Positions 2,522 through 44,000 are shown, counted from the stretch's first letter. The stretch is 64,000 nucleotides of DNA from Candidatus Omnitrophica bacterium UBA6249 (GCA_002441305.1 DJVT01000003.1:39226-103225), one strand, 5' to 3'. Notes: generated from the letters alone by a model not told the origin. Translations and numbers: made by a program.

Positions 2522-3649
2522 CTATGCTATCTGCCTCCTGAACCTGAGGGCGCTCATAGAAATTACAATCAGGCCTATGGCTAAAAGGGGAAGGAAATTA
2601 CCCCACAATATACCCATCCCCACCCCCTTCAGGAATATCCCCCTTACGATAACCAGGTAATAGCGCATAGGGTTTATCAAAGTAAAATACTGGATGCACT
2701 GCGGCATATTCGCTATCGGATAAGCGAACCCCGACAGCAGGAATACCGGCATATAAAACAGGAATACCGACATCATCGCTTCCTGCTGGGTGGAGGCTAC
2801 CGTTGAGATAAACAACCCTATGCCCAGGCTGGTAAATAAATATACACAAGTAGCCAGTATAAGCAATGCCAGGCTTCCCCGGAAAGGTATGTGAAACCAG
2901 ACTACCCCCAATATCGTAATCATGGCGCACTGGATAAGCGCGATTACCCCGAACGGCAGCAGCTTTCCGAAAATAAGCTCAAGCGGCCTCAAGGGGCTGA
3001 CGATGAGCTGCTCCATCGTACCGATCTCCTTCTCACGGACTATCGCCATGGCGGTCAGGAGAAGGGACATGATCGTCACGATAGACGCAACCACTCCCGG
3101 CAGGTAATAGTCGCGGGAAACCAGGTTCCCGTTGAACCAGGCGCGGTCCCTTAAATCCACGCTCGGGATCCCGGAATCTACCCCGATAGAAGCAGCCTTA
3201 TCCTTCAGCATATCATATTGATATTTGCCCATGATCGACCCGGCATAACTCATTATGATCATCGCGGTATTCGAATCCGAACCGTCGAGGGAAAGCTGCA
3301 TGCTTGTCTCCCTGCCGGACCTGATATCGCGCCCGAATCCACGGTCGATGCGCAGCACTACGCTGGCCAGCCCCTTATCAAGCATGCGGTCCTGCTCCTG
3401 CTGGCTGTCGATATAATATTTAGGTATGAAATACCCGGAATAGGTAAACCTGTGCAGAAGGTAACGGCTCTCCTTGGTATTATCCTGGTCGTAAATAGCT
3501 GTGGGGATAAAATCGATATCCCGGTTCGCCGCATAACCAAAAAGGATTATCTGCAGGATAGGAGAAATCAGAATAACGGTCCTCATGCGGGGGTCGCGCA
3601 GGACCTGCTTGAATTCCTTGATCAATATGGCCTTTATCCTCTCCAGCAT
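2522..3649 (-). CDS. ABC-2 type transporter permease (YbhS/YbhR-like)
   Basis: Start trimmed to MLERIKAILIKEFKQVLRDPRMR, whose ATG overlaps the upstream stop by 1 nt (TGATG, ATG 3649-3647). It has a large extracytoplasmic loop and then a 5-6 TM C-terminal ABC-2 domain. Confidence 0.85.
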   Translation of the reverse strand: MLERIKAILIKEFKQVLRDPRMRTVILISPILQIILFGYAANRDIDFIPTAIYDQDNTKESRYLLHRFTYSGYFIPKYYIDSQQEQDRMLDKGLASVVLRIDRGFGRDIRSGRETSMQLSLDGSDSNTAMIIMSYAGSIMGKYQYDMLKDKAASIGVDSGIPSVDLRDRAWFNGNLVSRDYYLPGVVASIVTIMSLLLTAMAIVREKEIGTMEQLIVSPLRPLELIFGKLLPFGVIALIQCAMITILGVVWFHIPFRGSLALLILATCVYLFTSLGIGLFISTVASTQQEAMMSVFLFYMPVFLLSGFAYPIANMPQCIQYFTLINPMRYYLVIVRGIFLKGVGMGILWGNFLPLLAIGLIVISMSALRFRRQIA

Positions 3650-4782
3650 CAGAACACCTTCTTCTTGAACTTCTTTATCGCCAGGGAAAACATAAGCAAG
3701 GCAAAAAGCAGCAAAAACAAAGCCTCGTCCCACATCACGTCTATCCCGTTGCCTTTCAGGAAAAGGCCACGCAGTATTGTCACATAATAACGCGCCGGGA
3801 TAAAATAAGTGACTGCCTGGACAGCCTGTGGCATATTGAATATCGGGTAGATAAAACCAGACAGGAGCATCGTCGGGATAAATGTGGTCAACATAGCCAG
3901 CTGGCTGGCCAGAAGCTGCGATCTGGCGACGGTAGAGATAAATATCCCCTGCGAAAGGGCACCGACCAGGAACAAGGAACTTAAGAATACAAGCAGGCTG
4001 TAGCTCCCCCTGAAAGGAACGCCGAAAAACAGCCTGGCCATCACCACTCCCACAAAAAGGTCAAGGAAACCGATCGTAAAATACGGGATGAATTTGCCAA
4101 TGATCAACTCCGGGGCTTTCACGGGAGTGGAAATAAGCTGTTCCATCGTCCCCCTCTCCCACTCTTTGGCTACACAGATAGAAGTAAGCAAGGCGGCGAT
4201 GATCATGATAATCATCGCGATGACCCCGGGTACAATAAACCAGGTGCTGCTCAGGCTCATGTTGTACCATATCCTCGAACGCATATCTACGGAGCCCGGC
4301 TGGCTGACGCCATGGCGGTTAAGGAAATCGACGATCAGTTTTACGTTATAACCCGTTACTACGGAACGTACGTACCCCATGGCGATGGTGGCGGTATTGG
4401 AATCGCTTCCGTCAACAAGCAGCTGCAAAGGAGAGGATTTGCCCCCTTCGATAAAATGGGAAAAATCCTTGGGGATGACCAGGGCCATGATCACGTCCCC
4501 GCTGTCAATCATGCGCTGTATATCCCGGTAGTTATCCGTATATTTCACGATCTTGAAATACTTGGAGTTCCTGAAATTGAGCAGGAAATCGCGTGACAAC
4601 TGCGAAGAGGCATCCTGGTTCCATACTACGGTCCTCACCCTGTCTATATCCAGCGACAGGCCGTAGCCGAATATAAGCAGCAATAAGACGGGGATGAACA
4701 ACGCCAGGGCCAGAGAACGCGGGTCGCGGCGTATCTGGATAAATTCCTTACTGGATATGGCCAGGACTCTCTTAAAATTCAC
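3649..4782 (-). CDS. ABC-2 type transporter permease (YbhS/YbhR-like)
   Basis: 377 aa, paralogous to the downstream permease (SSKEFIQIRRDPRSL N-terminus and the same architecture). Confidence 0.85.
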   Translation of the reverse strand: MNFKRVLAISSKEFIQIRRDPRSLALALFIPVLLLLIFGYGLSLDIDRVRTVVWNQDASSQLSRDFLLNFRNSKYFKIVKYTDNYRDIQRMIDSGDVIMALVIPKDFSHFIEGGKSSPLQLLVDGSDSNTATIAMGYVRSVVTGYNVKLIVDFLNRHGVSQPGSVDMRSRIWYNMSLSSTWFIVPGVIAMIIMIIAALLTSICVAKEWERGTMEQLISTPVKAPELIIGKFIPYFTIGFLDLFVGVVMARLFFGVPFRGSYSLLVFLSSLFLVGALSQGIFISTVARSQLLASQLAMLTTFIPTMLLSGFIYPIFNMPQAVQAVTYFIPARYYVTILRGLFLKGNGIDVMWDEALFLLLFALLMFSLAIKKFKKKVF

Positions 4783-5750
4783 TTTTCCTTATGCTGTGCA
4801 TCATAATTCTCGATCAAGGAGACGAAAACGTCCTCGAGAGAAGCCTTGATCTTGTTTATGGAATACCCGCTCGCCCCCCGGCTGTCAAGAACCTTCTTTA
4901 TATCCAGCGCGGCCTTTTGCGCGTCAAAAACGACAGCATGGATATTCACTCCGAAAAGAGCGGTCTCTTTGACCGATTCCAGGCCTGATATCTCATCGAT
5001 CCACATCTCCGCCTGGGGCATGGACACTTCCAGGATCTCATGCTTCATGATACCGATCTTCATCTCTTCGGGGGAGCCCATGGCGATCATCGTACCGTGG
5101 TATATCATCACCAGGCGGTCGCAGTTCTCCGCCTCATCCATATAATGCGTAGTTACAAAAATAGTCTTCCCCTTGCTTGCCATCCCCTTGATTATATCCC
5201 AGAAGTTGGCACGGGTAATCGGGTCGACCCCGGAAGTCGGCTCATCCAAGAAAATAATATTCGGCTGATGGATTATCGCGCACCCCAAAGCCAGGCGCTG
5301 CTTCCACCCTCCGGAAAGGGTGCTGGTAAGGCTGGTGCGAAAACCCTCTATGCCGGCCAGCTCTATAGTCTCGTCCCTGCGCTTCAGTCTTTCCTTTTCC
5401 GGTATATTGTATATCCGGCTGTAGAAATCTATATTCTCTTCCACAGTCAGATCATCATACAGGGAGAACTTCTGCGACATATAACCTATATGCTCCTTGA
5501 TCCTGTACTGCTCCCTGATGATATCGAATCCCCCGACGCTGCCGCTGCCGGAAGTAGGCGTGTATATACCGCAAAGCATCCTGATCGTAGTGGACTTCCC
5601 CGCCCCGTTGGGCCCCAGGAAACCAAAAATCTCCCCCTGCCTGACTTCGAAGTCTATATGATTGACCGCGACGAAATCCCCGAACCTTTTTTCCAGGCCC
5701 TTCACCATCACGGCAACCCCGTTGTTCTTATTGCCCGGATTCATATTCAT
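4779..5750 (-). CDS. ABC transporter ATP-binding protein (YbhF-like half)
   Basis: Walker A GPNGAGKST, signature LSGGWKQR, Walker B IIFLDEPTSG. Confidence 0.9.
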   Translation of the reverse strand: MNMNPGNKNNGVAVMVKGLEKRFGDFVAVNHIDFEVRQGEIFGFLGPNGAGKSTTIRMLCGIYTPTSGSGSVGGFDIIREQYRIKEHIGYMSQKFSLYDDLTVEENIDFYSRIYNIPEKERLKRRDETIELAGIEGFRTSLTSTLSGGWKQRLALGCAIIHQPNIIFLDEPTSGVDPITRANFWDIIKGMASKGKTIFVTTHYMDEAENCDRLVMIYHGTMIAMGSPEEMKIGIMKHEILEVSMPQAEMWIDEISGLESVKETALFGVNIHAVVFDAQKAALDIKKVLDSRGASGYSINKIKASLEDVFVSLIENYDAQHKEK

Positions 5751-6462
5751 TTATTATCCTGACAAAGGCCTGCTCCAGAGTCTTCACGCCTATCTCATTC
5801 TTGATGTTGCCCGGGCTGTCGCATCGCAACAGTCTACCCTTATGTATCAAGGCGACTCTACGGCAGCGCTCGGCTTCATCGAGATAAGAAGTGGAATAGA
5901 AAATGGTAACTTTTTCCTTCAACAGGTCGTAAAGGATCTTCCAGAAGTCCCTGCGTGAGACCGGGTCTACCCCGTTTGTAGGTTCATCCAGAAATAATAC
6001 CCTCGGGGTATGCACGAGGGCACAGGCGAGCCCAAGTTTTTGCTTCATCCCCCCCGAGAGTTTACCGGCGAGTCTTTGTTTAAATGGGATAAGACCGGAA
6101 AATCCGAGCAGCTTATCGATTACCTGAGAGCGGTCTTTTTTGGAAACACAGAATACATCCGCGTAAAAGTTTATGTTTTCCAGTACAGTAAGCTCTTCAT
6201 AAAGCCCGAAACGCTGGGACATATAAGCGATATTATCCTTTAAGGCTTCGGATTCCTTGACGATATGCCTGCCGTAAACCCACCCTTCCCCGGAGGTAGG
6301 CTCGAGTATCCCCGTCAAAAGGCGCATGGTAGTGCTCTTCCCTGCCCCGTCCGGGCCAACCAGGCCGAATATCTCACCCTCCTCTATTTCAAGGTCTAAA
6401 TCAGCAAGCGCGGTATTATCCCCAAACTTTCTGGTAAGATGCGAAGCCTTTATGGCGATCAT
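5728..6462 (-). CDS. ABC transporter ATP-binding protein (YbhF-like half)
   Basis: Walker A GPDGAGKST, signature LSGGMKQK, Walker B VLFLDEPTNG. Confidence 0.9.
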   Translation of the reverse strand: MIAIKASHLTRKFGDNTALADLDLEIEEGEIFGLVGPDGAGKSTTMRLLTGILEPTSGEGWVYGRHIVKESEALKDNIAYMSQRFGLYEELTVLENINFYADVFCVSKKDRSQVIDKLLGFSGLIPFKQRLAGKLSGGMKQKLGLACALVHTPRVLFLDEPTNGVDPVSRRDFWKILYDLLKEKVTIFYSTSYLDEAERCRRVALIHKGRLLRCDSPGNIKNEIGVKTLEQAFVRIINEYESGQ

Positions 6463-6465
6463 GGG

Positions 6466-7299
6466 CTAATCTATGATATAGGCGTCTGCAGGCATGCCGG
6501 GCTTAAGCTCCAGACTGGAATTATCGACCCTGACCTTTATCCTGTAAACCAACTTGACCCTTTCCTGCGTAGTTTGTATAGTCTTAGGGGTAAACTCAGC
6601 TTCACTGGAAATAAAAGATACCCACCCTTTATACTTCTTATCCAGATAGGTATCCGTGACGACATAAGCCTGCTGGTTCAATTTCACCCTGCCCAAGTCG
6701 GTTTCATTTATATAGGCGGTAACCCAAAGGTTATTCAGGTCGATTACGGTAAATACCGGCGCGCCTATCTGCACCACTTCCCCGGCAAGGGCGCTTTTCA
6801 CCAGCACGTAACCGTTGAGGGGGGAACACAGCTCGGCAAACCCGAGCCTCGTTTTGGCAAGCTCGAAGGATGCATTCAATGCCTCGATATTTGCTTTATC
6901 CGCGTCTGCGAGGGTCTTGGCCGCGTCCCTCTTTTGCATGGGGATTGCCCCGGCCTTAAAAAGGTTCTCCGCACGTTCATAATCAAGCTTATCCAGGGCA
7001 TACTGGTGTTCCGCGGCCCTTAAGGCCCCCTCTGCGTTATCGCGTATCCTGGTCAACTCATCCGTGTTCAACCGGGCCAGCGTATCGCCTTCCTTGACCA
7101 CCTGCCCTTCATCGGTAAGCAGTTCGATGATCTGCCCCTGCACGCGGAAAGACAGACGCACGTCATCCCCCTCTATATTCCCGGAAACCTTGATAAAGTC
7201 GCGGCGGTGTTCGCCGGCCCTCCAGAAATACGCCGCGGCTATGCCGCAGGCAACCAGGACAAAAACGACAAGTGCAACCGGCTTAATTTTTTTGCTCAT
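6466..7299 (-). CDS. HlyD-family periplasmic adaptor (YbhG-like)
   Basis: N-terminal TM anchor, coiled-coil middle, C-terminal barrel (LKPGMPADAYI). It sits upstream of the two ATPases and two ABC-2 permeases. Confidence 0.85.
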   Translation of the reverse strand: MSKKIKPVALVVFVLVACGIAAAYFWRAGEHRRDFIKVSGNIEGDDVRLSFRVQGQIIELLTDEGQVVKEGDTLARLNTDELTRIRDNAEGALRAAEHQYALDKLDYERAENLFKAGAIPMQKRDAAKTLADADKANIEALNASFELAKTRLGFAELCSPLNGYVLVKSALAGEVVQIGAPVFTVIDLNNLWVTAYINETDLGRVKLNQQAYVVTDTYLDKKYKGWVSFISSEAEFTPKTIQTTQERVKLVYRIKVRVDNSSLELKPGMPADAYIID

Positions 7300-8854
7300 T
7301 TATTCCTCCCGATAGGAAACTCTTTCCCATAGTCCTGTCCAACTCCGCCTGGGCCATAAGGTAATCATAAATTGCCTGGGAAAGATTCGTCTCGACCTGG
7401 CTCAATGACACCTGGGCGTCAAGCACATCCAGGTTTTTTGCCTCCCCGTTATCATAGCTTACCCGGGCTATCTCCAGGGCCTCCCTAGCCTGCGCAACGT
7501 TATCTTTTTGGGAATCGATCAACTGCTCTGCCTCTTTCAGGTCAAGACAGGCCCGGCGCACGTCCACGGCGATACGCTCAACCACGTTCTCCTTGGTCAA
7601 GAGCGCCTGGTTATAACGTACCTTTGCGGCGTCAACCTTGGCTTTGGTGGAAAATCCGTCAAAAACCGCCAACGAAAACTTCAAGCCGATATTCCAGTTA
7701 TTATGCGCCCTGTTGAACATATTGCCCCAGTCATTCGAACGGAAATCATACCCGGCTCCTGCGCTGACCTGGGGGCGCCATCCGGATTTAGCCATCTGCA
7801 CCGACCATCTGCTTATATCTATGCCCAGAGTCCTCAAAATCATCTCAGGTTTGTTAAGATAAGCCTGCTGGAGAAAGTCGTCCTCCCTGACCTCGACCAG
7901 GCTATAAGTCAATTTCTTGTCGCTCACCTCCAGGCCGCTATCCTGTTTATAGGAAAGGAGTTTTTTCAACTCCGCCTTTATGAGCTCAACGGCATTTTTC
8001 GCCTTGACCAGCTCCGGGAGCGTCAGGGAGACCTGTACGCTCGACTGCAACAGGTCGAACCTCGAGGAAAGCCCCTGGGCGTACCTGTTCTTTACGTCTT
8101 CATAATGCTCTCTTGCGTTACCGGTGAGCTCCTGGGCAATCCTTTCCGTCTCGTAAGCAAGCAGCAATCCGTAATAAAGGCGCCGTGCCTCAAACTCTAT
8201 ATCAAGCTTCTTGGCGCGTAAAGTCTCCTCCGCCGCTTTAAGGTTTAGTTTGGCCTGGCTCAGGTTGGCAGTATTGAAACCCCCGCTGTAAAGCGTCTGG
8301 TTCAGGGAAACCCCTACGGAATTATCGTTTTTGTACCCCGTAAACACTCCGGGATCCTTTTTTCCCGCAGCCGCACTCGCGGCGACTGCTGCATTGCGGG
8401 TATACCCTGCATCAAGGTCAAGCTGCGGCAGAAGCCTGCTCTTTGCCCCTCCTATATCCGCGCGGGCGATCCCCAGCTCCTGCTCCTGAATCTGTATATC
8501 TATATTATTCCTGAATGCCGTACGTATTGTCTCCTGCAGGGAAAGCCCAGGCTCCTGGGCGCACGCCTTCCCCGCAAAAACAAAAATAAGGGCGATCATG
8601 ATGCAGAGGGATTTGGAAAGGATGCTTTTGATTTCGTTGTAAATCGGGCTGCGCGTATTGACTTGGAAAAACCTGGCGTTGGCCTTATACTCGCTTGAAA
8701 GCAATCCGTTCTTGTGCAGGCTTTCCAGGGCCCTTTGGAAGGTGCCGGGTTTCTTCTTCAACAGGCGTCCTATTTCCTGTATATAGAACTGGCGCTTGGG
8801 ATGGGTATAGAATAATTTAAGCAGCTTAAGCTTATTCTTGCTTAACAGGCTCAT
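7283..8854 (-). CDS. TolC-like outer-membrane efflux protein with an in-frame N-terminal winged-helix-like domain
   Basis: The ORF runs 7283-8884, with a likely start at MSLLSKNK (8854). The first ~82 aa after that start (ORF residues 11-92) look like a wHTH regulator (YIQEIGRLLKKKPGTFQRALESLHKNGLL). Next comes a signal-peptide-like IMIALIFVFAGKACAQE, then an OEP/TolC repeat domain. An alternative internal start at 8599 has no obvious SD. Confidence 0.7.
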   Translation of the reverse strand: MSLLSKNKLKLLKLFYTHPKRQFYIQEIGRLLKKKPGTFQRALESLHKNGLLSSEYKANARFFQVNTRSPIYNEIKSILSKSLCIMIALIFVFAGKACAQEPGLSLQETIRTAFRNNIDIQIQEQELGIARADIGGAKSRLLPQLDLDAGYTRNAAVAASAAAGKKDPGVFTGYKNDNSVGVSLNQTLYSGGFNTANLSQAKLNLKAAEETLRAKKLDIEFEARRLYYGLLLAYETERIAQELTGNAREHYEDVKNRYAQGLSSRFDLLQSSVQVSLTLPELVKAKNAVELIKAELKKLLSYKQDSGLEVSDKKLTYSLVEVREDDFLQQAYLNKPEMILRTLGIDISRWSVQMAKSGWRPQVSAGAGYDFRSNDWGNMFNRAHNNWNIGLKFSLAVFDGFSTKAKVDAAKVRYNQALLTKENVVERIAVDVRRACLDLKEAEQLIDSQKDNVAQAREALEIARVSYDNGEAKNLDVLDAQVSLSQVETNLSQAIYDYLMAQAELDRTMGKSFLSGGINEQKN

Positions 8855-8876
8855 TTCCGGTCCTATTATGCATTTA

Positions 8877-8940
8877 GCATACAATTATATTATTATGCAT
8901 ACAATTATATACATTTTGCATATATTGTCAAGGACAATAT
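8877..8940 (-). promoter_or_regulatory. sigma70-like promoter with tandem 14-nt direct repeats and a palindrome over the -35
   Basis: On the minus strand, TTGACA (8926-8931) is separated by 16 nt from TATAAT (8904-8909). GCATACAATTATAT occurs twice (8877-8890, 8897-8910; 20-nt period). The palindrome ATATTGTC-aag-GACAATAT spans 8922-8940. Confidence 0.5.
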
Positions 8941-8947
8941 CCTGTTT

Positions 8948-10150
8948 TTATTCTTTGTTCTTCATTCCGGGAGGGAACTTCTGCCAGGGGTATCCCCGGG
9001 CAGCCTGGTTAAAACCTAAATCAAACAACTCGCGCATTTCTTCGGGATCAAAAAGCTCTTTGGCCTTTGAAATATGGCTTGCCGGGATATAAGCAAGGTT
9101 AAAATCCCCCTTGCTCCTGTCGGTAAATACATATAACTGGTACAGGTCCCCGATGCTTTGGGCATTTGTCATGGCGTCAATCGTCCGCTCGGCGATCGCA
9201 GGGATGTTATCCGGGACTTCTTTGTAAAAAGGATCGACATACCCGTTTCTTATCACATAGATTTCATATCTAACAGCCGATGCATCGATACCTTTTTCTT
9301 TAAGCGCCTTGTCGAGGCCCTGCAGCACATCGTAAAGGAAAAACACCTGCCTGCTTATTCCTCCATCGACATGCATTTCGTCATACGACTGATTATTGGC
9401 GGTTACTTTTAAATAAACCGGCGGGAAGGCAACGGGAATCGACGCCGACGCCAATATAATCCTGCGGAATAACGTCAAGGCTTCCTCATTGCCGAAAGAA
9501 GCGATCTTGCCCATATCCCAGATCGCGAGGCGCCCCGCATCGAGATTAGTAGTGCCCACATAAAGCCTCCGCCCCTTATCATATTCTCCGGCGATATCTC
9601 TCAACAGCCTGGCGTCTATATATTTTTCGATGAGCCGCTGCAGCGGTACGGTACTGGCGACGGAATTGCTGAACGGGATCCTTATGCGGGGCGAACGCAT
9701 GCGCACTATATCCTTGGTGGAATAACTCGTATAAAATTCCTTCAGCTTGAAGTCGTAATCGCTCCCCAGGAAAGCAAAAGGAGCGATTATCGCCCCCGTG
9801 CTTATCCCCGTGACCGCCTTAAATAACGGGCGCTTGCCTGAATACGACCAGCCGTTCAACAATCCCGCTCCGTAGGCGCCATTGGCGGCGCCTCCGGAAA
9901 TAGCAAGAGCGTAATAAGTCTGGTCGGTTCCAAAATTAAAAAAGTGCGGGCCCTTTTTACCGTTTTCTTCCAGCAGCTTTACAAAATCCCGCTTAAAAGA
10001 ATCATTGGGCAGGCCGCTAAAAGCCCGGATCTCCCGCATGCCGTTGATCCCGGCAGTCCCCAATAAATCCGGCGGCACGGCGTGCCTTATGCCCGCGCAT
10101 CCGGAAAGCATGAAAATACCCAGAATTAAATAATGAAAACCTTTCGGCAT
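8948..10150 (-). CDS. patatin-like phospholipase, probable lipoprotein
   Basis: GxSxG nucleophile GISTGA, Gly-rich oxyanion region GGAANGAYGAG, and a DGG Asp motif (HVDGGIS). Start trimmed to MPKGFHYLILGIFMLSGCAG, which carries the lipobox LSGC. Confidence 0.85.
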   Translation of the reverse strand: MPKGFHYLILGIFMLSGCAGIRHAVPPDLLGTAGINGMREIRAFSGLPNDSFKRDFVKLLEENGKKGPHFFNFGTDQTYYALAISGGAANGAYGAGLLNGWSYSGKRPLFKAVTGISTGAIIAPFAFLGSDYDFKLKEFYTSYSTKDIVRMRSPRIRIPFSNSVASTVPLQRLIEKYIDARLLRDIAGEYDKGRRLYVGTTNLDAGRLAIWDMGKIASFGNEEALTLFRRIILASASIPVAFPPVYLKVTANNQSYDEMHVDGGISRQVFFLYDVLQGLDKALKEKGIDASAVRYEIYVIRNGYVDPFYKEVPDNIPAIAERTIDAMTNAQSIGDLYQLYVFTDRSKGDFNLAYIPASHISKAKELFDPEEMRELFDLGFNQAARGYPWQKFPPGMKNKE

Positions 10151-10154
10151 AATG

Positions 10155-10730
10155 TCACGAATTCTGCGGGCGGGAACCATTTTTCTTAATCACCGTCAAG
10201 ACAGCTGCCACGACTTCCGGGTCATACAATACTCCGCCGTTCTCCTTTATTTCCCGTATGGCTTTCTCAACGCTCAAGGCGGGCTTGTACACCTGGGGGG
10301 AAATAATCGTATCTACCACATCGGCGACCGCGATTATCCTTGCCAGGGGGCTTATATCTCCCCCCTTCTTCCCAAAAGGATAGCCCGAGCCATCCAATCT
10401 TTCGTGGTGCTGGAGAGCGATCTCCGAGGCAACAGGGTCAACTCTCAAAATACGCAAAAGACGGTAACCCATTTCCGGATGCTGTTTAACCAATGCCATT
10501 TCTTCTTCGTTCAGGGCGCCCGGCTTATTAATGACCTCCTCCGGCAGCCTGATCTTTCCGATATCATGGGAGATCGCCGAAATCCTGACAAGGCTGATCT
10601 TATTGTCGCCATACTTCATTTCTTTCGCGATAGCGCAGGAGATGCGGGCAACGCGCCTGCCGTGCGCAAGTACGGGTTTATTCCGGCCCAAAAGCCTTAT
10701 TATCGCCAACAGCGGGTTTGGTTTATCCAT
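10155..10730 (-). CDS. stand-alone HD-GYP domain phosphodiesterase
   Basis: HD motif (SHDIGK) and HHERLDGSGYP. Confidence 0.85.
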   Translation of the reverse strand: MDKPNPLLAIIRLLGRNKPVLAHGRRVARISCAIAKEMKYGDNKISLVRISAISHDIGKIRLPEEVINKPGALNEEEMALVKQHPEMGYRLLRILRVDPVASEIALQHHERLDGSGYPFGKKGGDISPLARIIAVADVVDTIISPQVYKPALSVEKAIREIKENGGVLYDPEVVAAVLTVIKKNGSRPQNS

Positions 10731-10733
10731 TTT

Positions 10734-13700
10734 TTAACGCCTTGAGAATATCCTTTCAAACCGTTCCAGGTACCAGAAAACAACCGGCACAAAAATAAAG
10801 GTAAAGACTATCGAAGCGAGCATCCCGCCGGTCATAACCGCACCCATGGACTGTTTCATTTCCATGACCGACCAGAACTGCGGCAAGACGCCCAGGATGA
10901 TCGCCAGGGAAGTCATAATGATTACCCGGAATTTCTCCGAAGCTCCCAGCCAAAGCGCCTCCTTAACCGGCACCCCTTCCTTCATCTTTACCAGCGCGTA
11001 ATCCAAAAGCAGGATGGCATTATTAACCACCATGCCTACCAGCATGACTACGCCCATTAAAGAAGCGACATTTATGGAGTGCCCCGTGAGAAATAATCCT
11101 AAGATCATGCCGATAACTGAAGTGGCCACGGTCATGATTACGGTAACGGGATAAGCGATCAATGAATTCATCAGGGCGCATAACAGCATGAAAGTCAGGA
11201 TAACCGCCAAAGTAAAAGCCTTGACGAGTTCACGGTTGGACTCCTCCATATTCTCGGCGTTGCCCACGTAACGGTAGCCGTAACCATCTGGAAAGTCCAT
11301 GGACTTGAACTTCTTATCCAGCAGGCCGCTCACATAACCGAAGGCGCTTTTGCCGAGAAACCCGTCTAAATGTATAACCCTCTCCCTGTCGCGATGCCAG
11401 ATAACCGGGATAGCCTTATCGGTCTTTAGCTCGCCAAAAATACTTATCGGCACCAGCCCCTTCCTGGAACGGATAGAAACAAGCTTCAGGTCGTCAAAAT
11501 CCTGGGCGTATTTATCGCTCAATTCGATATTAACTTTATATTCTTCGCCGCTCTCCTTGTAAACATTAGAATCGTCGCCGTAAATGGAGGCCCGCAGCGT
11601 GGATCCGGTATCGACAGCGGTCAGGCCGTATTCAATAAGTTTATCCTGCTGCGGGAGAAGACGGATCTCGTTGCGGGGGACTTTATAAGAAGAAATAACG
11701 CTGCGGAAATACCCGCTCTCCTGCATTATACCCTTCATCCGGTTGGAAAGTTCGATCATCCTGTCGTAATCTATCCCGTATAAATCTATGGCGATATCCC
11801 CCGTGCCCGGCTCAAGGGCTATCCCGCGCTCAAAGCTCACCTCAAGATCCGGGATCCGGGACATGAACCTGGTAAGCTCATCCATAATCTCAGTATCCCT
11901 CCTGCGCCGGTCCTTCAAAGGAACAAGATCCAGGGTAATCTTGGCGTTCTCCACCCCGTTTTCGCCTATATCGGTAAGATAGGATTTTTTCTCCGCAAGA
12001 TTATCCAGATAGTTCTCCACCACCTTTATGGTTTCGATGGTTCGTTCGATAGTCGAGCCCTGCGGGAGGATCATATTTATCCTGATCTGGTCTTCATCCG
12101 ACTGCGGGGCAAAGTCGTTTTCGATATACGGAACGATTAAAAACGAGGCGATAAATAATAACGCCACAAAGAAAATAGTCATTTTGGGATGACGGAAGAT
12201 AAAATCAAAAATATAACGGTACTCCCTTTTCAGGAAATCCATAAAACGGTCAACCTGCGCGCGCAGCAGTTTTAAAGGCGTAAATATCCGGCTTAAGATG
12301 CTGCCCCCTTTTTTGCCTTCCTTTCCCCCTTTCTCCGGTTTGAGAATCGCCGCACAAAGCATCGGGGTAAGAGAAAAAGAAGCCAGCAGCGAAAAGAGAG
12401 TGGCGTAGACTACGGTAAGCCCGAATGATTTCATAAACAGGCCGACCAAGCCTGCCATCATGGCAATGGGCATAAAAACCACAAGGTTGGTGCCGGTAGC
12501 GGCGATGATCGGCACCACCACCTCCTTGGTGCCGTTAATCGCCGCCGCCTCAGGGCCGCTTCCCCGCTTAAGATGCACCAGCACGTTCTCGATAATTACC
12601 AGGGCATTGGAGATCAAGGTGCCTAAAACCGTGGCGATGGCCAGCAGGGTCAGGGTATTTATGGAAAAATTTGACATCCATACCGGGAAAAGCGTGGAAA
12701 CAATCGATGTCGGGATAATGACCGAGGCGATAAATGTCGTCTCCCATTTCCCCAGGAACAAATAAAGTATCAAGGCGGTAAAAATCAAACCGTACAATAT
12801 GCTGAACTGGGTGCTGTTAGTCTCGTTAATGATAAAAGTAGTGGTATCGCTGGCGATGTCCAGCTTCATCCCCTTAGGCAGCCTCGACCTGAATTCATTA
12901 AGCCGCAGGCGCATCTGCCTGGCGATGGAAACTGCGTTGCCGTCGGAGGATTTATTCACCGAGAGCCCGACTACCTCCTTGCCGTCAAAACGGGCGTGGG
13001 TCTTTATCTTTTTAAAGCTGTCCTCGACGCAAGAAATATCCTTAAGATGAAACAATTCCCCGTCGGCAGAAGTCAGCTCCATATCGGAGATCTCGTCCAC
13101 ATCCTGGAACTCCCCGATGAATCTTACATTAAGGGAGCTGAAGCCTTTCTCCAGGTCCCCGACCGGGATATTCTTGTTTTTTGCGGACATCTGGTTGATT
13201 ACCTCGCCGATGCTGATGTAATAACGTTTCATAAGCATCGGGTCAAGGCGCACGTTTATCTGGCGCTTCCTGCCGCCATAAACGTCCACCTTGGCCACCC
13301 CGGCGATGGAAGCGAATCTTGTCTTCAGCGTCTTGTCGGCATATTCGTAAAGCTCGCGCACGTCCAGGCTGTCGCTGGAGAGCACCAGGTCCACCACCGG
13401 CTGGACCAGCGGGTCATATTTCTCGATCACCGGTTTCTTGATCCCGTCCGGCAGGTCATTCAGGATAGCGTCGACCTTGTCTTTCACTTCGATGGATTTT
13501 ACGTTTACGTCCGCGGAAAGAAGGAATTCTATGGATAAAAACCCCAGGCTGTCATAAGATTTGCTTTTTATCTTCTTGATCTCGGATACCTCGGAAACCG
13601 CATCCTCCACCTTCTTGACGATAAGCGTCTCTATCTCCAGGGGGGTGGCCCCGGCGTACTCGATGGATACGGTAACGATAGGATAATCTATCTTGGGGAA

Positions 13701-13802
13701 TTTCTCCACCAGCAGGTTCGAATAGCTGTATATGCCGAGGACCACGAATACCAGCACGAACATGATAGTGGTTATCTTATGTTTTACGAAGAAGTCGATC
13801 AT
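10734..13802 (-). CDS. RND efflux transporter, AcrB/HAE1-like inner-membrane pump
   Basis: 1022 aa with the typical N-terminus (FFVKHKITTIMFVLVFVVLG...PKIDYPIVTVSIEYAGATP) and 12-TM/two-large-loop organisation. Confidence 0.95.
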   Translation of the reverse strand: MIDFFVKHKITTIMFVLVFVVLGIYSYSNLLVEKFPKIDYPIVTVSIEYAGATPLEIETLIVKKVEDAVSEVSEIKKIKSKSYDSLGFLSIEFLLSADVNVKSIEVKDKVDAILNDLPDGIKKPVIEKYDPLVQPVVDLVLSSDSLDVRELYEYADKTLKTRFASIAGVAKVDVYGGRKRQINVRLDPMLMKRYYISIGEVINQMSAKNKNIPVGDLEKGFSSLNVRFIGEFQDVDEISDMELTSADGELFHLKDISCVEDSFKKIKTHARFDGKEVVGLSVNKSSDGNAVSIARQMRLRLNEFRSRLPKGMKLDIASDTTTFIINETNSTQFSILYGLIFTALILYLFLGKWETTFIASVIIPTSIVSTLFPVWMSNFSINTLTLLAIATVLGTLISNALVIIENVLVHLKRGSGPEAAAINGTKEVVVPIIAATGTNLVVFMPIAMMAGLVGLFMKSFGLTVVYATLFSLLASFSLTPMLCAAILKPEKGGKEGKKGGSILSRIFTPLKLLRAQVDRFMDFLKREYRYIFDFIFRHPKMTIFFVALLFIASFLIVPYIENDFAPQSDEDQIRINMILPQGSTIERTIETIKVVENYLDNLAEKKSYLTDIGENGVENAKITLDLVPLKDRRRRDTEIMDELTRFMSRIPDLEVSFERGIALEPGTGDIAIDLYGIDYDRMIELSNRMKGIMQESGYFRSVISSYKVPRNEIRLLPQQDKLIEYGLTAVDTGSTLRASIYGDDSNVYKESGEEYKVNIELSDKYAQDFDDLKLVSIRSRKGLVPISIFGELKTDKAIPVIWHRDRERVIHLDGFLGKSAFGYVSGLLDKKFKSMDFPDGYGYRYVGNAENMEESNRELVKAFTLAVILTFMLLCALMNSLIAYPVTVIMTVATSVIGMILGLFLTGHSINVASLMGVVMLVGMVVNNAILLLDYALVKMKEGVPVKEALWLGASEKFRVIIMTSLAIILGVLPQFWSVMEMKQSMGAVMTGGMLASIVFTFIFVPVVFWYLERFERIFSRR

Positions 13803-13805
13803 TCT

Positions 13806-14537
13806 TTATTTTCCCGTACCTGCATTATCGCCGGATGGATCCTCGAAGCCGGTTATAGCCACTTTATCGCCTTCCTTCAAAATACTCTGCCCCGTGCTGA
13901 CCACCAGGTCCCCCGAACTTAATCCCGCTTCCACGGCCGTACCGTAACCGTCGCGCCGGCCGATCTCAATCCTGGATTTTTTAGCTCTGCCCTCTTCTAT
14001 TTTCCATAATGAATAATTGCCCCCCGATATATCGACGACGCTATTGGGGACTACGATGGTATCCTTCAATTCCCCGCTCAAAACAAATACCGGGATCATT
14101 GCCCCGGGAGAAGCAACAGGACTGCCGAATTCCACACTTACCTTATACATGCCTGTGTGCGTGTCCATATCCCGGTCCATATCCGAAACCTTACCGCAGG
14201 CAGCGGCGCCTTCCCGCAAATAAACCTCCTGGCCCTTTTTAAGCTTATCCTTGATGTCCCCGGTTACAAAACCCGCACCAACGCTGCCCTGTCCGGCAAC
14301 AAGGGTAATCTTTGTGTAAACCGGCACATCCGAGCTTTTTACCTTCCTGGCGGTCACCGGCTTCCCGTACTCCTCCCACTCTGCGACAAAACTGATTATG
14401 CGGCTGGCGCGCTTATTCTCCACCGATTTAATAGTGGAAAAAACCGCAAACGTAACGGACAGTATTATCAGCAGGTATCCTGCCTTCCTTAAATTACGGC
14501 TTCCTAACGGCATCTTCTTTCTCGTAGTGTCCGGCAA
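13806..14537 (-). CDS. RND efflux periplasmic adaptor (short MFP)
   Basis: TM anchor plus beta-rich periplasmic domain, directly upstream of the RND pump. The start is uncertain (14537 or 14513). Confidence 0.75.
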   Translation of the reverse strand: MPDTTRKKMPLGSRNLRKAGYLLIILSVTFAVFSTIKSVENKRASRIISFVAEWEEYGKPVTARKVKSSDVPVYTKITLVAGQGSVGAGFVTGDIKDKLKKGQEVYLREGAAACGKVSDMDRDMDTHTGMYKVSVEFGSPVASPGAMIPVFVLSGELKDTIVVPNSVVDISGGNYSLWKIEEGRAKKSRIEIGRRDGYGTAVEAGLSSGDLVVSTGQSILKEGDKVAITGFEDPSGDNAGTGK

Positions 14538-15825
14538 TCAGTTTCTCTATCTTCGCCATGGTTACGTTGATATTAAACAGGGTCATTTCTTTATTCAATC
14601 TTTGATTCGTCAAAAGGAGCTCTGCGTCATTCAAATCCGTCAAATCCACTTTCCCTGAAGCGAACATCTCCTGGGTCTGCTTAAAGGACTCCTCCGCCAG
14701 GCCTACCGCCTCGTTATTGGCCGCCAGGTTAGCACGGTACTGCCGGTATTCCAGGACTGCTTTTTTCAACGCAAGCAGGAGGTCTTTTTCAAGCTGCTTC
14801 TTCTGTAAAATAGCTATTTCCTTATCCATGCGCGCCTGCCTCAGCTGCGCCTGTTTTTCTCCGCCCTCCCAGATAGGTATGCTTATCTTGATCCCCGCAA
14901 AGGTATAACTCCCGGTTTCATTGCCGTTCAGCGTAGAATCGCTTGGGGCAGCAATATTATTCCAAGAAGTAAATCCCGACACCGTGGGCAGGAAACTGGC
15001 ATTTTTGCTTTTTACGTTCGCTTCCGCGGATTCCATATATTTTTCGAGGCTCTTTAAAGAAGGCTCATGGCCATACATTGCCGAGACGAGTTTCTCATAA
15101 TCAAGTTCCCCGTATTCCTCTTTGAAGTCCTCCGTAAGATCTACCCCCCGGGGAGATTCTTCACCTATTACTTTTTTAAGGGTTTCGGTAGCCGTGCCGG
15201 ACTGCGCGCGCGCCTCGTTGACCGTGGGAACCCTGGCGGCTACCTCCGTGTCCATTCTTAGTATTTCATATTTCGAACTCCGCCCGCCGTAAGAACGCTG
15301 CTCAAGCAGTTTCTTGTTCTCTAAGGCATTGCCGTAAGAGCTTTCGGTTATTGACAAAGTCTTTCTGGCAAGCAGCCCCGTAAAATAACTTAACTTGGCG
15401 GTATAAATCACCTCCTGTTTCCCCGCCTCCCTATCGTACCTTCTCGCATCGATCGCTTTACTGGCGGAATCAACCGCGTGCATTATCTTGCCGAACGACC
15501 AAATGACCTGGGATGCGGTTATCCCGGTTACGGAATCATAATCCCCAAGCTTCATGGAACTGGGATAATCCACATTATATAAATACATGTATTGCGCATC
15601 TATATGCGGCATCATGCCCGCGCGCGCCTGCCGGTAAGCCCCTTCGCTCTTATCCACCCGGCGGTCCCGTATTTTTAATTCCTCGCTGGTATCTATGGCC
15701 ATCCTTATGGCATCATCAAGCCCGATCTGCAATATCTGTTCATCCCCGCCTCCGGCAAACAAATTATCAGAGATAAAAGATATTGAAATCATTAATGTTA
15801 CGATAAAAGTCGCCAACTTATTCAT
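14494..15825 (-). CDS. TolC-like outer-membrane efflux protein
   Basis: Signal peptide and duplicated OEP helical/barrel repeats. It is the first structural gene after the TetR regulator. Confidence 0.9.
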   Translation of the reverse strand: MNKLATFIVTLMISISFISDNLFAGGGDEQILQIGLDDAIRMAIDTSEELKIRDRRVDKSEGAYRQARAGMMPHIDAQYMYLYNVDYPSSMKLGDYDSVTGITASQVIWSFGKIMHAVDSASKAIDARRYDREAGKQEVIYTAKLSYFTGLLARKTLSITESSYGNALENKKLLEQRSYGGRSSKYEILRMDTEVAARVPTVNEARAQSGTATETLKKVIGEESPRGVDLTEDFKEEYGELDYEKLVSAMYGHEPSLKSLEKYMESAEANVKSKNASFLPTVSGFTSWNNIAAPSDSTLNGNETGSYTFAGIKISIPIWEGGEKQAQLRQARMDKEIAILQKKQLEKDLLLALKKAVLEYRQYRANLAANNEAVGLAEESFKQTQEMFASGKVDLTDLNDAELLLTNQRLNKEMTLFNINVTMAKIEKLIAGHYEKEDAVRKP

Positions 15826-15828
15826 CGC

Positions 15829-16434
15829 TTACCTTCTTCTCCCTACTCCATCCACAAAATACCCAAGGATAGTATCCGAGAGATCGGTCAAAGACCCCTT
15901 GCCCAATTTAAAACATTCGATGACCACCGTTTTCAATATTGCAAAAAATATATCCCCGGTCTGGCCCGGAATAAGATCGGACCTGATTATGCGGCGCTCC
16001 TGCCCCTCTCTTACCAGTTTTATCAAATATTCTTTAAACTGCCGCCCTGGGACGCTGCCGGCTATCCTGTCTTCGGTATAAATCTGGGATCCCTCATAGA
16101 CAAATATACGGAAAAAATCTTTGTTCTTCTCAAAAAAATCCAGGGCCTCCCTCAAGAATACCCGCAGCTTGATACGGGAATCCTCCTCACGCTCTACTCT
16201 TTCTTTCAACAACGACAGGAGCATTTTTATTTTGTTTTCAAATAGGGCAAAATAAAGATCGTCCTTATCTTTAAAATGCAGATAAACCGTACCGGTAGCA
16301 TATTGCGCCTCCCTGGCGATATCCCTTATCGTCGCTTTATGATAACCCCGTAAAGCAAAAACATGCTCTGCGGCCCTGAGGATATCCGAACGGCGAAGCT
16401 TCTTGTCCCTCTCTTTCCTGTTAAACGCGACCAT
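15829..16434 (-). CDS. TetR-family transcriptional regulator
   Basis: Start trimmed to MVAFNRKERDKK. TetR HTH: ILRAAEHVFALRGYHKATIRDIAREAQYATGTVYLHFKDKDDLY. Confidence 0.9.
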   Translation of the reverse strand: MVAFNRKERDKKLRRSDILRAAEHVFALRGYHKATIRDIAREAQYATGTVYLHFKDKDDLYFALFENKIKMLLSLLKERVEREEDSRIKLRVFLREALDFFEKNKDFFRIFVYEGSQIYTEDRIAGSVPGRQFKEYLIKLVREGQERRIIRSDLIPGQTGDIFFAILKTVVIECFKLGKGSLTDLSDTILGYFVDGVGRRR

Positions 16435-16462
16435 GCTGCCTCCATGCACATGCTGTTCGTTC

Positions 16463-16514
16463 TGTGAACAACTGTTCACAAATAAAATATACCATTCATA
16501 GAAGATATTGTCAA
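16463..16514 (-). promoter_or_regulatory. near-consensus promoter plus palindromic operator for the TetR/RND operon
   Basis: On the minus strand, TTGACA (16509-16514) is separated by 17 nt from TATATT (16486-16491). It is followed by the perfect inverted repeat TGTGAACA-ac-TGTTCACA (16463-16480), between the -10 and the TetR start. Confidence 0.6.
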
Positions 16515-16527
16515 GGTTTATTATGGC

Positions 16528-16560
16528 AAAAATAAAACCGCCGGCCAATACGGCCGGCGG
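16528..16560 (-). terminator. rho-independent terminator
   Basis: On the minus strand, CCGCCGGCC-gtatt-GGCCGGCGG (9-bp GC stem) is followed by TTTTATTTTT. It lies 36 nt after the stop of the 16596-17012 gene. Confidence 0.7.
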
Positions 16561-19484: not shown

Positions 19485-20450
19485 TTATTTTTTGCGCGAC
19501 ATCTTCGGCATGAACGGATTACTGCCCGTATCGCTGCTGCTCGGAAATACGTATTTCTTGCTCGTAATGATTAACGTATCGTCGGCATTCAGGCCGGAAA
19601 GCACTTCATAATTCTTATCGTCGGTTATCCCCAGTTCGACGGCCTGGCTTGCCGGGTTTCCTCCGTTGCCCTCTTTCAAAAACACATAACTCCTGCCGTT
19701 TTCCTTGCGCACGGCCTCCACCGGGATCAACAGCGCATTATCCTTCCCTTCCACTTTGAAGTCTATCGTCGCATTCATCCCGGAACGGAAGAATTCGGGG
19801 ATTTTATCCGGGATAAGGTCTACCTTGTATATAGTTACATTGTTAACGGTTTCGGACTCATAATATATATGCTCCACTTTAGCGTCTATATTTATATCGG
19901 GATAGGCGTCAAGAATAATGGTGGCCTTCTGGTCCAGTTTAACCTTGCCTATGTCAGTTTCATCCACCTGGGCCCGCACGATCAATTTATCCGAAAGGAC
20001 TATTACCGCATCGGAAGTGGTCACCGTCTGCCCGGGTTGAGTGGTAGCGACAATAACCTCCCCTTTTATCGGGGAAAGCAGCGCTATCGGTTTATAAGCC
20101 TCCTGCCAGTATTTAAGCTTCTCCTCCCCCTGTCCGCGGGCGGAATCCAGCAAAGCCGCCCTCTCTGTCGAACTCATCCAGGCAAGGACCTGCCCGACAG
20201 CCACATTATCCCCCTCCTTGACCAGTACGCTCTCCACCCTGCCGCTCACGGGCGGGATTATCTCAAGACGGTTCTTGGGATAAACCGTACCGGTGGTGGA
20301 AACAATATTATAAATGCTCCCTACGTTCGGCCTTATCTCCCGGATAATCTCCGAATCGGATTTGGGGTTCCTGTACAGCGCGCGCGCAAGGAATAACGCC
20401 GCCCCCAGGATTACGACCGCCAACAAGATCTTCGTTTTCTTATTGCGCAT
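19485..20450 (-). CDS. MacA/HlyD-family periplasmic adaptor
   Basis: Start trimmed to MRNKKTKILLAVVILGAALF. Lipoyl/barrel motifs are present, and it sits upstream of macB. Confidence 0.85.
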   Translation of the reverse strand: MRNKKTKILLAVVILGAALFLARALYRNPKSDSEIIREIRPNVGSIYNIVSTTGTVYPKNRLEIIPPVSGRVESVLVKEGDNVAVGQVLAWMSSTERAALLDSARGQGEEKLKYWQEAYKPIALLSPIKGEVIVATTQPGQTVTTSDAVIVLSDKLIVRAQVDETDIGKVKLDQKATIILDAYPDINIDAKVEHIYYESETVNNVTIYKVDLIPDKIPEFFRSGMNATIDFKVEGKDNALLIPVEAVRKENGRSYVFLKEGNGGNPASQAVELGITDDKNYEVLSGLNADDTLIITSKKYVFPSSSDTGSNPFMPKMSRKK

Positions 20451-21732
20451 ATTCCAACGTCTCTCCTTTCGCGTAAACCCAATTGGCTTCGGCAAGCAAG
20501 GCGTTTGCCTGGGCGTTTAGAAAAGATTTCTTGGCTTTTACAAGGTTATCTTCGATTATTGTCCAGTTGTCGAACGTGATGAAACCGGTGGAGTACTGCG
20601 CTTCCGCTATAGTAGAACGCTCCACCGCGGCATCCAGGGCCTTGCGCTGGACATCCACCGTTTCTATTCCGTCCTGCAGTAAGGCCCATGCCTGCTCAAG
20701 GCTGACAAGCGCGCTGTCCCTGACATTTTTCTCATCCGCCTCCGCCTGCCGGTAAGCAGATTTACTCTGGGCGAGCTGGGCAAGCCTCATGCCCCCTTCG
20801 AATATAGGGATGCTCACGCTTAATCCCGCGCTCAAATTCTTATCCCTGGGAGGCCAATTCGAACCGCTCTTGTCCGCGCTCAAGCTCCCCAGGATTTGCG
20901 GTGCGAAGTCGGCGTAGGCTGATTTTATGTCGAAAGATGCAGCGTTCTTCTTGGCGGCGGCCTGGAGCAAAGAAGGGTTGTTTTCCACGATCAGTTCAAA
21001 ATCCGGCTTTTCCCTGGCGCTGTCGGCGACATCAAATCCGCCCTTGGCGTATAAAGGGGAAAAACTGCCTCTCCCCATCTCCTTGCTTAACCTCCTTTGC
21101 GCGTAATCAAGGTCTCTTTTTGCCTGGGCGACTTCAAAGTTCGCCTCTGCCACATCCGCCTCGGCGGTAAGCAAGGCCCCGCGGTGCTCTAGCCCTGACT
21201 GGTAACGCAAAGTTATCAATTCCAGGTTTTCTCTCCTTATTTTCGATATTTCCTCTGCCACATGGATCAACTCTTGGGCCTGCAAAAGATTGACAAAAGC
21301 GCCGCGCAGGCTCAACCTTACCTCGGAAGAAGTAAAACGGTACGCCTCCCGGGCAGCCCTTACTTCTTCGGATGCGGATTTTACATCATTGACGGTCTTA
21401 AGGCCGTCGAACAACAATTGCGTTCCGCTTACCCCGTAATTATATGAATCATTGGTTTTATCCGTCCTTACCCCCGTATCCGCATTGGTGGAAGTCACCT
21501 TTGCCGTAGATACGCCGGCGCTTGCGGATACCTGCGGATAAAGCGCGCTGGCAGTTATATCCTTGCCGGCGGCCTGCTGATTGACGCTCTCTACGGCAGA
21601 GATAAGCTGGGGGTTGTTCTTTCTGGCCTCGGCTATACAACCCTGCCAGTTAAGTTCCTCCTGGGCGTACGCCTGCGCCGAAAAAAACCCGCACACCAGC
21701 AAGAACGCTGTAGTTCTGACTAATAAGTTCAT
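20440..21732 (-). CDS. TolC-like outer-membrane efflux protein
   Basis: Signal peptide (AQAYAQE) and duplicated OEP repeats. It is the first gene of the MacAB-like operon. Confidence 0.9.
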   Translation of the reverse strand: MNLLVRTTAFLLVCGFFSAQAYAQEELNWQGCIAEARKNNPQLISAVESVNQQAAGKDITASALYPQVSASAGVSTAKVTSTNADTGVRTDKTNDSYNYGVSGTQLLFDGLKTVNDVKSASEEVRAAREAYRFTSSEVRLSLRGAFVNLLQAQELIHVAEEISKIRRENLELITLRYQSGLEHRGALLTAEADVAEANFEVAQAKRDLDYAQRRLSKEMGRGSFSPLYAKGGFDVADSAREKPDFELIVENNPSLLQAAAKKNAASFDIKSAYADFAPQILGSLSADKSGSNWPPRDKNLSAGLSVSIPIFEGGMRLAQLAQSKSAYRQAEADEKNVRDSALVSLEQAWALLQDGIETVDVQRKALDAAVERSTIAEAQYSTGFITFDNWTIIEDNLVKAKKSFLNAQANALLAEANWVYAKGETLEYAQ

Positions 21733-43931: not shown

Positions 43932-44000
43932 CTTACCCTCCGGTTAACAATATATGCCCGTAAAAAATACAGATAATTATATGCATGATACCGCTCTATA

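Follow-up and report, generated by a model that had tools for sequence, protein, structure and literature searches.

We analysed 64,000 nucleotides of DNA from Candidatus Omnitrophica bacterium UBA6249 (GCA_002441305.1 DJVT01000003.1:39226-103225), a stretch to which we refer as the window, and concentrated on a minus-strand gene whose predicted product joins a winged helix-turn-helix (wHTH) domain, a segment resembling a signal peptide and an outer-membrane factor of the TolC family. The open reading frame (ORF) at 7283..8884(-) is genuine. As the initial annotation had described, it holds a wHTH-like region, a signal-like segment and a full TolC domain, which is borne out by the predicted fold, by Pfam and by the lack of any stop codon between the three parts. 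In a mechanical ORF list its first codon is TTG 8884, which falls within the operator array upstream of the gene. As all homologues open with M-x-L-L-S-K-N-K at the ATG at 8854-8852, and as an AGGA sequence lies 6 nt upstream of this codon, we assign the biological start to ATG 8854 and not to TTG 8884; the longer gene start assumed originally was abandoned on the same grounds. The product from ATG 8854 comprises 523 aa.

The structure of the wHTH domain was predicted with AlphaFold2 (AF2) from an alignment of 28 homologous N-termini. Residues 1-82 were modelled at a predicted local distance difference test (pLDDT) score of 92.4 and show the order helix-helix-helix-strand-strand-helix of a winged-helix fold. 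A Foldseek comparison with the PDB revealed repressors of the ArsR/SmtB (SmtB, CzrA, HlyU, SqrR) and MarR (MepR, MexR, ZitR, AdcR, SlyA) types at TM scores of 0.70-0.77, and the efflux repressors MepR and MexR were among the best structural matches. By sequence, the domain belongs to no curated family: Pfam and NCBIfam yielded sub-threshold HTH matches only (MarR_2 with 14.6 bits against 27, HTH_metalloreg with 14 against 55), the best match of a PDB sequence search reached an E-value of just 0.024, and the Pfam scan of the window protein gave no match to the OmpR-type Trans_reg_C domain. Among 58 aligned full-length members, mean identity to the window protein amounts to 67% in the wHTH, 62% in the TolC part and 16% in the segment between them. 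The recognition helix is nearly invariant across the family, and the wHTH is, as judged from these alignments, under selection. No second copy of it was found in the 64-kb window.

Residues 76-99 display the hallmarks of a Sec signal peptide, i.e., a basic n-region (K76-K81, at the end of the wHTH), a hydrophobic h-region of 7-15 residues, a helix breaker and small residues at -3/-1, with a predicted signal peptidase I site of the AxA type at A99|Q100 (ACA|QE). Across the family, with cleavage sites placed by a rule of our own, so that the statistics at -1 are partly imposed by the choice of site, the net charge of the nine residues in front of the hydrophobic core averages +1.7, the core spans ~10-15 residues with a Gly or Pro near its end, and the last Lys or Arg precedes the putative cleavage site by a median of 18 residues. 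Of 113 sequences, 105 have L, G, A, S, I or V at -3, and positions +1/+2 are Q, E or A followed by E or D. Despite its low sequence identity the segment retains its hydropathy, and signal peptides evolve likewise. It is positionally homologous to the N-terminal signal peptides of two unfused TolC genes (L034 and L056, see below), and the TolC profile TIGR01844 begins four residues past Q100. Whereas usual TolC proteins have their signal peptide at the extreme N-terminus, this segment follows a folded domain and begins at residue 76-83. In an AF2 model of the full-length protein (pLDDT 83), the last helix of the wHTH runs through the hydrophobic core (residues 70-97) and is followed by a loop and by helix H1 of TolC from residue 106. 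In its sequence features, the hydrophobic segment resembles cleavable signal peptides more than it does permanent anchors. Of the membrane-tethered regulator/duct fusion considered in the initial annotation, the fusion is thus retained and the tether is not, as the segment appears cleavable.

Within the TolC part, Pfam recognizes two OEP (PF02321) repeats at residues ~104-511 from the ATG (E 1.7e-74, 250 bits against a cut-off of 22), and AF2 yields a complete TolC protomer with strands at 144-153, 176-189, 362-373 and 385-394 and helices of 36-67 residues. The NCBIfam TIGR01844 match spans positions 3-399 of the 414-position profile and scores 168 bits, short of the subfamily cut-off of 225; the TolC part belongs to the TolC family, not to the type I secretion subfamily of TIGR01844. 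Judging from gene order, the fused gene heads a YbhGFSR-like HlyD/ABC/ABC-2 efflux operon (Table 1). Downstream sequence of at least 2.5 kb is available for 45 fused loci; the adaptor, both ATPases and the first permease follow in the window's order in every one of them, and the second permease in 44. In the window operon, Pfam was run on the adaptor and on the permease at 2522-3733; all five gene types have Pfam matches in orthologous loci.

Table 1 Predicted features of the fused wHTH-TolC gene, its promoter region and the genes behind it.
Feature	Coordinates	Strand	Remarks
8-nt inverted repeat ATATTGTC/GACAATAT around the -35	8922-8929 / 8933-8940	(-)	present in the window
-35 hexamer TTGACA	8926..8931	(-)	nearly all related loci have CTTGACA in this position
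TATGC/GCATA-like half-site array	8867..8926	(-)	every 9-11 bp, orientations alternating; extends from the promoter spacer to ~+30
-10 hexamer TATAAT	8904..8909	(-)	16-nt spacer; sits within operator copy 1
Operator copy 1 (predicted)	8897..8910	(-)	coding strand ATATAATTGTATGC; position weight matrix (PWM) 29.7 bits
Operator copy 2 (predicted)	8877..8890	(-)	20 nt (two helical turns) downstream of copy 1; PWM 22.7 bits
Shine-Dalgarno (SD)-like AGGA	8861..8864	(-)	6 nt 5' of ATG 8854
Winged-helix DNA-binding domain (predicted)	8609..8854	(-)	residues 1-82; recognition helix at ~residues 36-48 (KKPGTFQRALESL)
Signal-peptide-like segment	8558..8608	(-)	residues 83-99; h-region LCIMIALIFVFA, c-region GKACA
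Mature TolC-family outer-membrane factor	7286..8557	(-)	residues 100-523; stop codon 7283-7285
HlyD/YbhG-like periplasmic adaptor	6466..7299	(-)	overlaps the TolC stop; HH_YBHG match weak
Two ABC ATPase genes	5728-6462, 4779-5750	(-)	window ORFs; Pfam in orthologous loci
Two ABC-2 permease genes	3649-4782, 2522-3733	(-)	window ORFs; Pfam in orthologous loci

The fusion is widely conserved. A protein search with the window product returned 893 matches. Nearly all of the best 120 measure 514-545 aa at 97-100% query coverage, down to 55% identity, and 112 of these 120 share the order wHTH, basic flank, hydrophobic core, small-x-small motif and TolC. Named homologues are listed as 'TolC family protein' of Candidatus Omnitrophota/Omnitrophica and carry no annotation beyond that. 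In the family, the wHTH takes up ~82 residues and ends with E-L-K-S-I-x-x-K-S-x-K; the junction reads LYA|QE, LFA|QD, GFC|EE or AQA|A and leads into the conserved TolC start LSLxDAIxxAFKNNKDIQ. A genome scan with the wHTH alignment alone, employing one genome per GTDB species, yielded 80 loci, 57 of which are single-ORF wHTH-TolC fusions, including a protein of 556 aa encoded on the closed chromosome of Ca. Velamenicoccus archaeovorus LiM (NZ_CP019384.1). Conservation in many independent assemblies and in a closed genome excludes an assembly error, a lost stop codon or a frameshift, and the lost-stop alternative raised initially can be set aside. No description of an HTH-TolC fusion was found in the literature, and the Omnitrophota genome papers that we checked mention neither TolC nor HTH.

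Comparison of the orthologous loci disclosed a stop codon separating the two parts in only two of ~60 (L034 and L056). In L034, the wHTH stops after 88 residues and is followed 13 bases on by a 477-aa TolC with its own Met and signal peptide (MPKRIIYLSLIFTSLVCFYTPRVYS|GE), while in L056 the end of the wHTH gene (89 aa) and the start of the TolC gene (470 aa) overlap, the TolC again having its own signal peptide and the same adaptor gene behind it. Both split forms keep the same operators upstream. To judge from their sequences, the split loci reveal the identity of the two halves and do not mark the fusion as an error. A decayed copy is present at L008:6001-6656, where a wHTH ORF of 86 aa with a stop codon precedes a frameshifted TolC remnant of 132 aa; the remaining operon is replaced by unrelated genes, and the operators persist upstream. 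In one Omnitrophota metagenome-assembled genome (L011:963-3251), a 762-aa ORF runs from wHTH-TolC into the HlyD-like adaptor, the result of a further fusion or else of a frameshift error where the two genes normally overlap.

We also inspected the sequences for internal starts. The in-frame ATG at 8599, Met-96 in the initial annotation, lies just inside the hydrophobic core and, as stated there, has no obvious SD sequence. Other family members have L, I, V, C or A at this position, and 28 of 54 fused genes contain no in-frame ATG, GTG or TTG in the stretch from the last helix of the wHTH to the hydrophobic core. An ATG occurs in this stretch in 11 of the 54, an SD-like sequence in only one; by the same SD criterion, 18 of the true starts among these genes scored positive. 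Internal initiation at Met-96, which had been proposed as an alternative, is thereby excluded as a feature of the family. Because many fused genes have neither an internal start codon nor an SD sequence, functional TolC must arise from the long precursor.

Upstream of the gene, TTGACA-16-TATAAT (8931..8904) matches the sigma-70 consensus at 12 of 12 positions. The two perfect direct 14-nt repeats with a 20-nt period that had been noticed over the -10 and the start region are present (GCATACAATTATAT, at 8877-8890 and 8897-8910); shuffled sequence gives 0.44 matches per 64 kb to this 14-mer at up to two mismatches. Copy 1 is an imperfect palindrome of the family consensus GCATAyAATTrTATGC and overlaps the -10 and the likely transcription start. 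In almost all of the 80 loci, the 140 nt 5' of the wHTH start are strikingly similar and share a layout of CTTGACA, TATGCA in the spacer and at least one (T)GCATAyAATTrTATGCA, the first copy of which holds the -10. We determined the enrichment of the motif with the window's own 14-mer only, to avoid circularity, and excluded the window's nearest relatives. With up to two mismatches allowed, the 11,980 nt upstream of wHTH genes contain 160 occurrences of the 14-mer and the other 718,180 nt of these loci contain 16, an enrichment of ~600-fold; the motif is found in 69 of 75 loci. TolC fusions carry one to four operator copies, mostly two, at a spacing of 20 or 21 nt.

The motif accompanies the wHTH across differing fusion partners and phyla. 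Proteins of ~190 aa in which the wHTH, 54-63% identical to that of the window, is joined to a nucleotidyltransferase (Pol-beta/MNT-type) are recorded under Aminicenantes, Firestonebacteria, Omnitrophota and other labels, and their genes have a single palindromic operator copy. Conversely, three homologues (P0083, P0086 and P0117) possess a Pfam-recognised XRE HTH_3 domain of ~58 residues in the wHTH's place, directly followed by a hydrophobic core, junction and TolC of the same kind, at the head of the same operon. Their promoters are devoid of the wHTH motif (best PWM at most 3.5 bits, against at least 14 in wHTH loci) and share a different repeated palindrome, TAGTATTATAATACTA-like, at the same place. 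The XRE form arose either from another, independent fusion or from an exchange of domains in which the link was kept. Since the motif stays with the HTH whatever the partner and differs where the HTH differs, we suggest that the HTH binds this operator and that the gene regulates itself. The assignment of the 14-nt repeat as the operator of the fused wHTH, proposed initially from the window alone, is thus strongly supported by comparative evidence.

The palindrome over the -35, which had been counted as part of the same operator, is present in the window as well. Its left arm is restricted to the window and an 86%-identical relative (L001/L002) and is absent from the other loci; we therefore rejected it as a regulatory element, and it is lineage-specific and probably incidental and non-functional.

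Two further observations concern the operator motif. A weaker match of 17-20 bits, TGCATATAATTATCTGTA, lies at 43968-43985 (both strands) of the window over the -10 of a promoter-like sequence. This promoter precedes an ORF at 43005-43931(-) of 308 aa with no Pfam match, just downstream of a MatE efflux gene (44001-45377); the site could be a second wHTH target or merely an AT-rich promoter. In six loci (L030, L033, L035, L044, L047 and L059), an extra palindromic operator-like site is located ~670-1200 nt upstream of the fused gene, which suggests a second regulated gene nearby.

A search among 1.84 billion representative proteins showed that the wHTH is widespread, with 2,240 matches that are mostly fused to nucleotidyltransferases. 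The best 150 matches of this search contained no full-length wHTH-TolC fusions; as the representatives of 50% clusters are mostly fragments or other architectures, the search gives no count of fusions. In a further set (P0245, P0160, P0183, P0148 and P0126), the wHTH is fused N-terminally to a Zeta-toxin-like P-loop kinase, a MEDS domain, an N6/N4 DNA methylase or Fn3 repeats, or is found as a tandem duplicate. Promoter, operator and wHTH together look like a portable, self-regulating cassette.

Taken together, the architecture and its conservation, the winged-helix fold, the linkage of wHTH and operator, the signal-peptide features and the lack of internal starts support a model for which we infer DNA binding in vivo, repression, topology, cleavage and the fate of the cleaved fragment. 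In this model, which we regard as probable, a cleavable signal peptide has an autorepressor as its cytoplasmic extension, and this autorepressor controls the TolC-headed efflux operon. The wHTH would emerge first from the ribosome, fold and stay in the cytoplasm, with the basic flank favouring an N-in orientation. The hydrophobic core would then engage Sec and the TolC part would be translocated. Cleavage by signal peptidase I at A99|Q100 would create a TolC N-terminus matching that of ordinary TolC proteins and leave a fragment of ~100 aa, wHTH plus signal peptide, at the inner face of the membrane. This fragment, the unexported precursor or both might bind the tandem operators, which extend from the -10 across the start site into the early transcribed region, and thereby repress the operon. 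The outcome would be a negative feedback in which the repressor is made 1:1 with TolC and is stoichiometrically tied to its synthesis and export. The fragment itself may stay tethered, be freed by signal-peptide peptidase or a site-2 protease, or be degraded. Because the wHTH has neither a ligand-binding nor a dimerisation domain, simple negative feedback would be expected. We speculate that the partner domain supplies dimerisation in the nucleotidyltransferase fusions with their single operator, and that the several operators of the TolC fusions serve a monomeric or membrane-bound binder acting cooperatively along one face of the DNA.

More tentatively, a transcription factor on an outer-membrane signal peptide might represent a new principle. 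Every round of export would deposit one membrane-proximal repressor molecule and every failed one would leave a soluble precursor-repressor, so that transcription could read the flux or health of TolC export without sensing a ligand, in a design built at least twice (wHTH and XRE).

Several points weigh against an autorepressor on a cleavable signal peptide. In about one third of the homologues, the predicted -1 residue is Cys and the one before it Phe or Tyr (GFC|EE, GYC|QE), and Cys at this position is unusual for signal peptidase I. Dimerisation of the 82-aa domain on palindromic sites is puzzling, as the dimerisation helices of ArsR and MarR proteins are absent and AF2 predicts a single helix (70-97) after the wing that runs into the hydrophobic core. 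To our knowledge, a folded 80-aa domain ahead of a signal peptide is no recognised class of Sec substrate, and we know of no natural bacterial outer-membrane protein of this make. Moreover, the covalent link may add nothing functional beyond co-expression. We also considered lipoprotein (NodT-type) processing of the GFC|EE variants and provisionally rejected it, as the Phe at -1 mismatches the lipobox.

A link of no function beyond co-expression is the core of an alternative that we consider possible, if rather unlikely, namely that the fusion is neutral. The wHTH would then be an ordinary local autorepressor joined to TolC by loss of the intergenic stop and start codons, a step permitted by a signal peptide that tolerates N-terminal extension, and the link would carry no export information. 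Such a history agrees with the split forms and their retention of the same operators, with the separate TetR gene followed by an outer-membrane factor gene in the adjacent resistance-nodulation-division (RND) operon (see below), and with the promiscuity of the wHTH module, which is joined to many payloads. It accounts poorly for a fused state that is held in at least 57 species-level genomes down to ~52-55% TolC identity and is split in two loci, and for the unrelated XRE HTH at exactly the same position before the signal peptide. The multiplication of operators in TolC fusions compared with cytoplasmic fusions also argues against neutrality, as it suggests a differing regime of DNA binding. 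We consider the initial annotation's genuine regulator/duct fusion supported by conservation and operator linkage.

Improbable, in our judgement, is an uncleaved bitopic regulator like ToxR or CadC, in which the segment would be a permanent anchor that holds TolC at the inner membrane while the wHTH binds DNA there. Cytoplasmic wHTH, one hydrophobic helix and a periplasmic domain are indeed the order of ToxR and CadC, and the continuous AF2 helix 70-97 would suit an anchor. Omnitrophota cells are ultra-small (PMC10066038), which would always keep the nucleoid near the membrane. Against permanent anchoring stand a core of just ~10-14 residues with a Gly/Pro breaker, the conserved small-x-small/acidic junction and the split orthologues, in which the corresponding segment serves as an N-terminal signal peptide of the usual kind. 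Only ~6-8 residues lie between the end of the helix and H1 of TolC. In outer-membrane factors (OMFs), the N-terminus and H1 are found in the equatorial domain, halfway down the ~100-Å periplasmic barrel (PMC8277102); judging from these structures, a protein anchored in the inner membrane could therefore not reach the outer membrane.

We give very little credence to the idea that the HTH is a protein-interaction or targeting module that does not bind DNA and, e.g., slows folding or recruits the precursor to the export machinery. RodZ illustrates that an HTH-transmembrane (TM)-periplasmic layout need not be a transcription factor, and the wHTH is under the threshold of every Pfam HTH model. Contrary to this idea, the operator co-occurs with the wHTH whatever its partner and switches with the HTH type, the recognition helix hardly varies, and the closest relatives, the wHTH-nucleotidyltransferases, sit behind the same palindrome.

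Two products from one ORF (TolC from an internal start, with the long form minor or regulatory), or a stop codon lost through faulty sequencing or assembly, would fit the ATG at 8599 and the separate genes of two orthologous loci, yet are scarcely credible given the lack of conservation of Met-96 and of candidate starts, a resulting signal peptide without a basic n-region, and the recurrence of the fusion in a closed genome and in assemblies obtained independently from many samples.

Several known systems share parts of this design. ToxR, TcpP and CadC likewise combine an N-terminal cytoplasmic wHTH, one hydrophobic segment and a periplasmic C-terminus and control transcription from the membrane. 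They have an OmpR-type Trans_reg_C domain, a stable TM helix of ~20 residues and a periplasmic sensor, whereas the window protein has an ArsR/MarR-like wHTH, a signal-peptide-like segment with a core of ~12 residues and, as its periplasmic part, a complete outer-membrane channel that has to leave the inner membrane and is a cargo rather than a sensor. RodZ (XRE HTH, TM helix, periplasmic domain) resembles the XRE variants but has no outer-membrane protein after the TM helix; its HTH binds MreB, and RodZ is uncleaved. The nearest mechanistic precedent, by analogy, is RsiV, the anti-sigma factor of sigma-V in Bacillus subtilis, with its cytoplasmic regulatory N-terminus, membrane segment and signal peptidase I site. 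Signal peptidase acts there as the site-1 protease that splits the cytoplasmic regulatory from the extracytoplasmic part (PMC4183432, PMC6066255). RsiV differs in that it does not bind DNA, its cleavage is gated by lysozyme, its outer part is a receptor instead of a cargo, and release depends on the site-2 protease RasP.

As to regulation of the pump, MepR and MexR (MarR family) and CecR/YbiH (TetR family, E. coli ybhGFSR) resemble the proposed autorepressor in being small repressors of an adjacent efflux operon with operators over the promoter, and the window's pump of HlyD, ABC and two ABC-2 permeases is of the ybhGFSR type. These repressors are separate soluble dimers with ligand-binding or dimerisation domains, unlike the wHTH described here, which is joined to the outer-membrane component and has no ligand domain. 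The wHTH-nucleotidyltransferases share the wHTH subfamily, the promoter layout and the 16-bp palindrome but have a cytoplasmic payload, one operator instead of two to four, and no export signal. Presequences with extra length or a second role are also known, as enterococcal sex pheromones are cut from lipoprotein signal peptides and autotransporters have extended signal peptide regions, but these are short (7-25 residues) and contain no folded or DNA-binding domain. As predicted from its sequence, the window protein combines features of a membrane-linked one-component regulator with those of a local efflux repressor in one polypeptide.

If correct, the proposed autorepressor would be the first natural case known to us of a folded DNA-binding domain ahead of a cleavable bacterial signal peptide, and transcription of the operon would be wired directly to the biogenesis of the outer-membrane protein encoded there. 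The fusion would also demonstrate that Sec substrates can carry sizeable cytoplasmic N-terminal domains, and would provide a compact, portable autoregulated cassette of promoter, operator, HTH and signal peptide. For the Omnitrophota, of which we know no isolates and almost no regulation, it would define a transcription-factor/operator pair. As to annotation, the genes are labelled just 'TolC family protein', and signal-peptide predictors that consider the N-terminus only may call their products cytoplasmic.

The window offers an internal contrast to the fused regulator in a neighbouring RND efflux operon (10734-16548(-)) of conventional layout. A separate TetR gene (15829-16548) is followed by an OEP gene (14494-15825) whose 443-aa product is without an HTH, by an adaptor (13806-14537) and by an AcrB-like pump (10734-13802). 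After the operon lie genes for an HD-GYP-like protein (10155-10730) and a patatin-like phospholipase (8948-10180). All of this gene order, the last two genes included, is syntenic in L001/L002. A further ORF at 20440-21732(-), of 430 aa, contains a distant TolC-like match at 21058-21669 with 23% identity to the C-terminal half, and the window thus encodes three OEP-type proteins.

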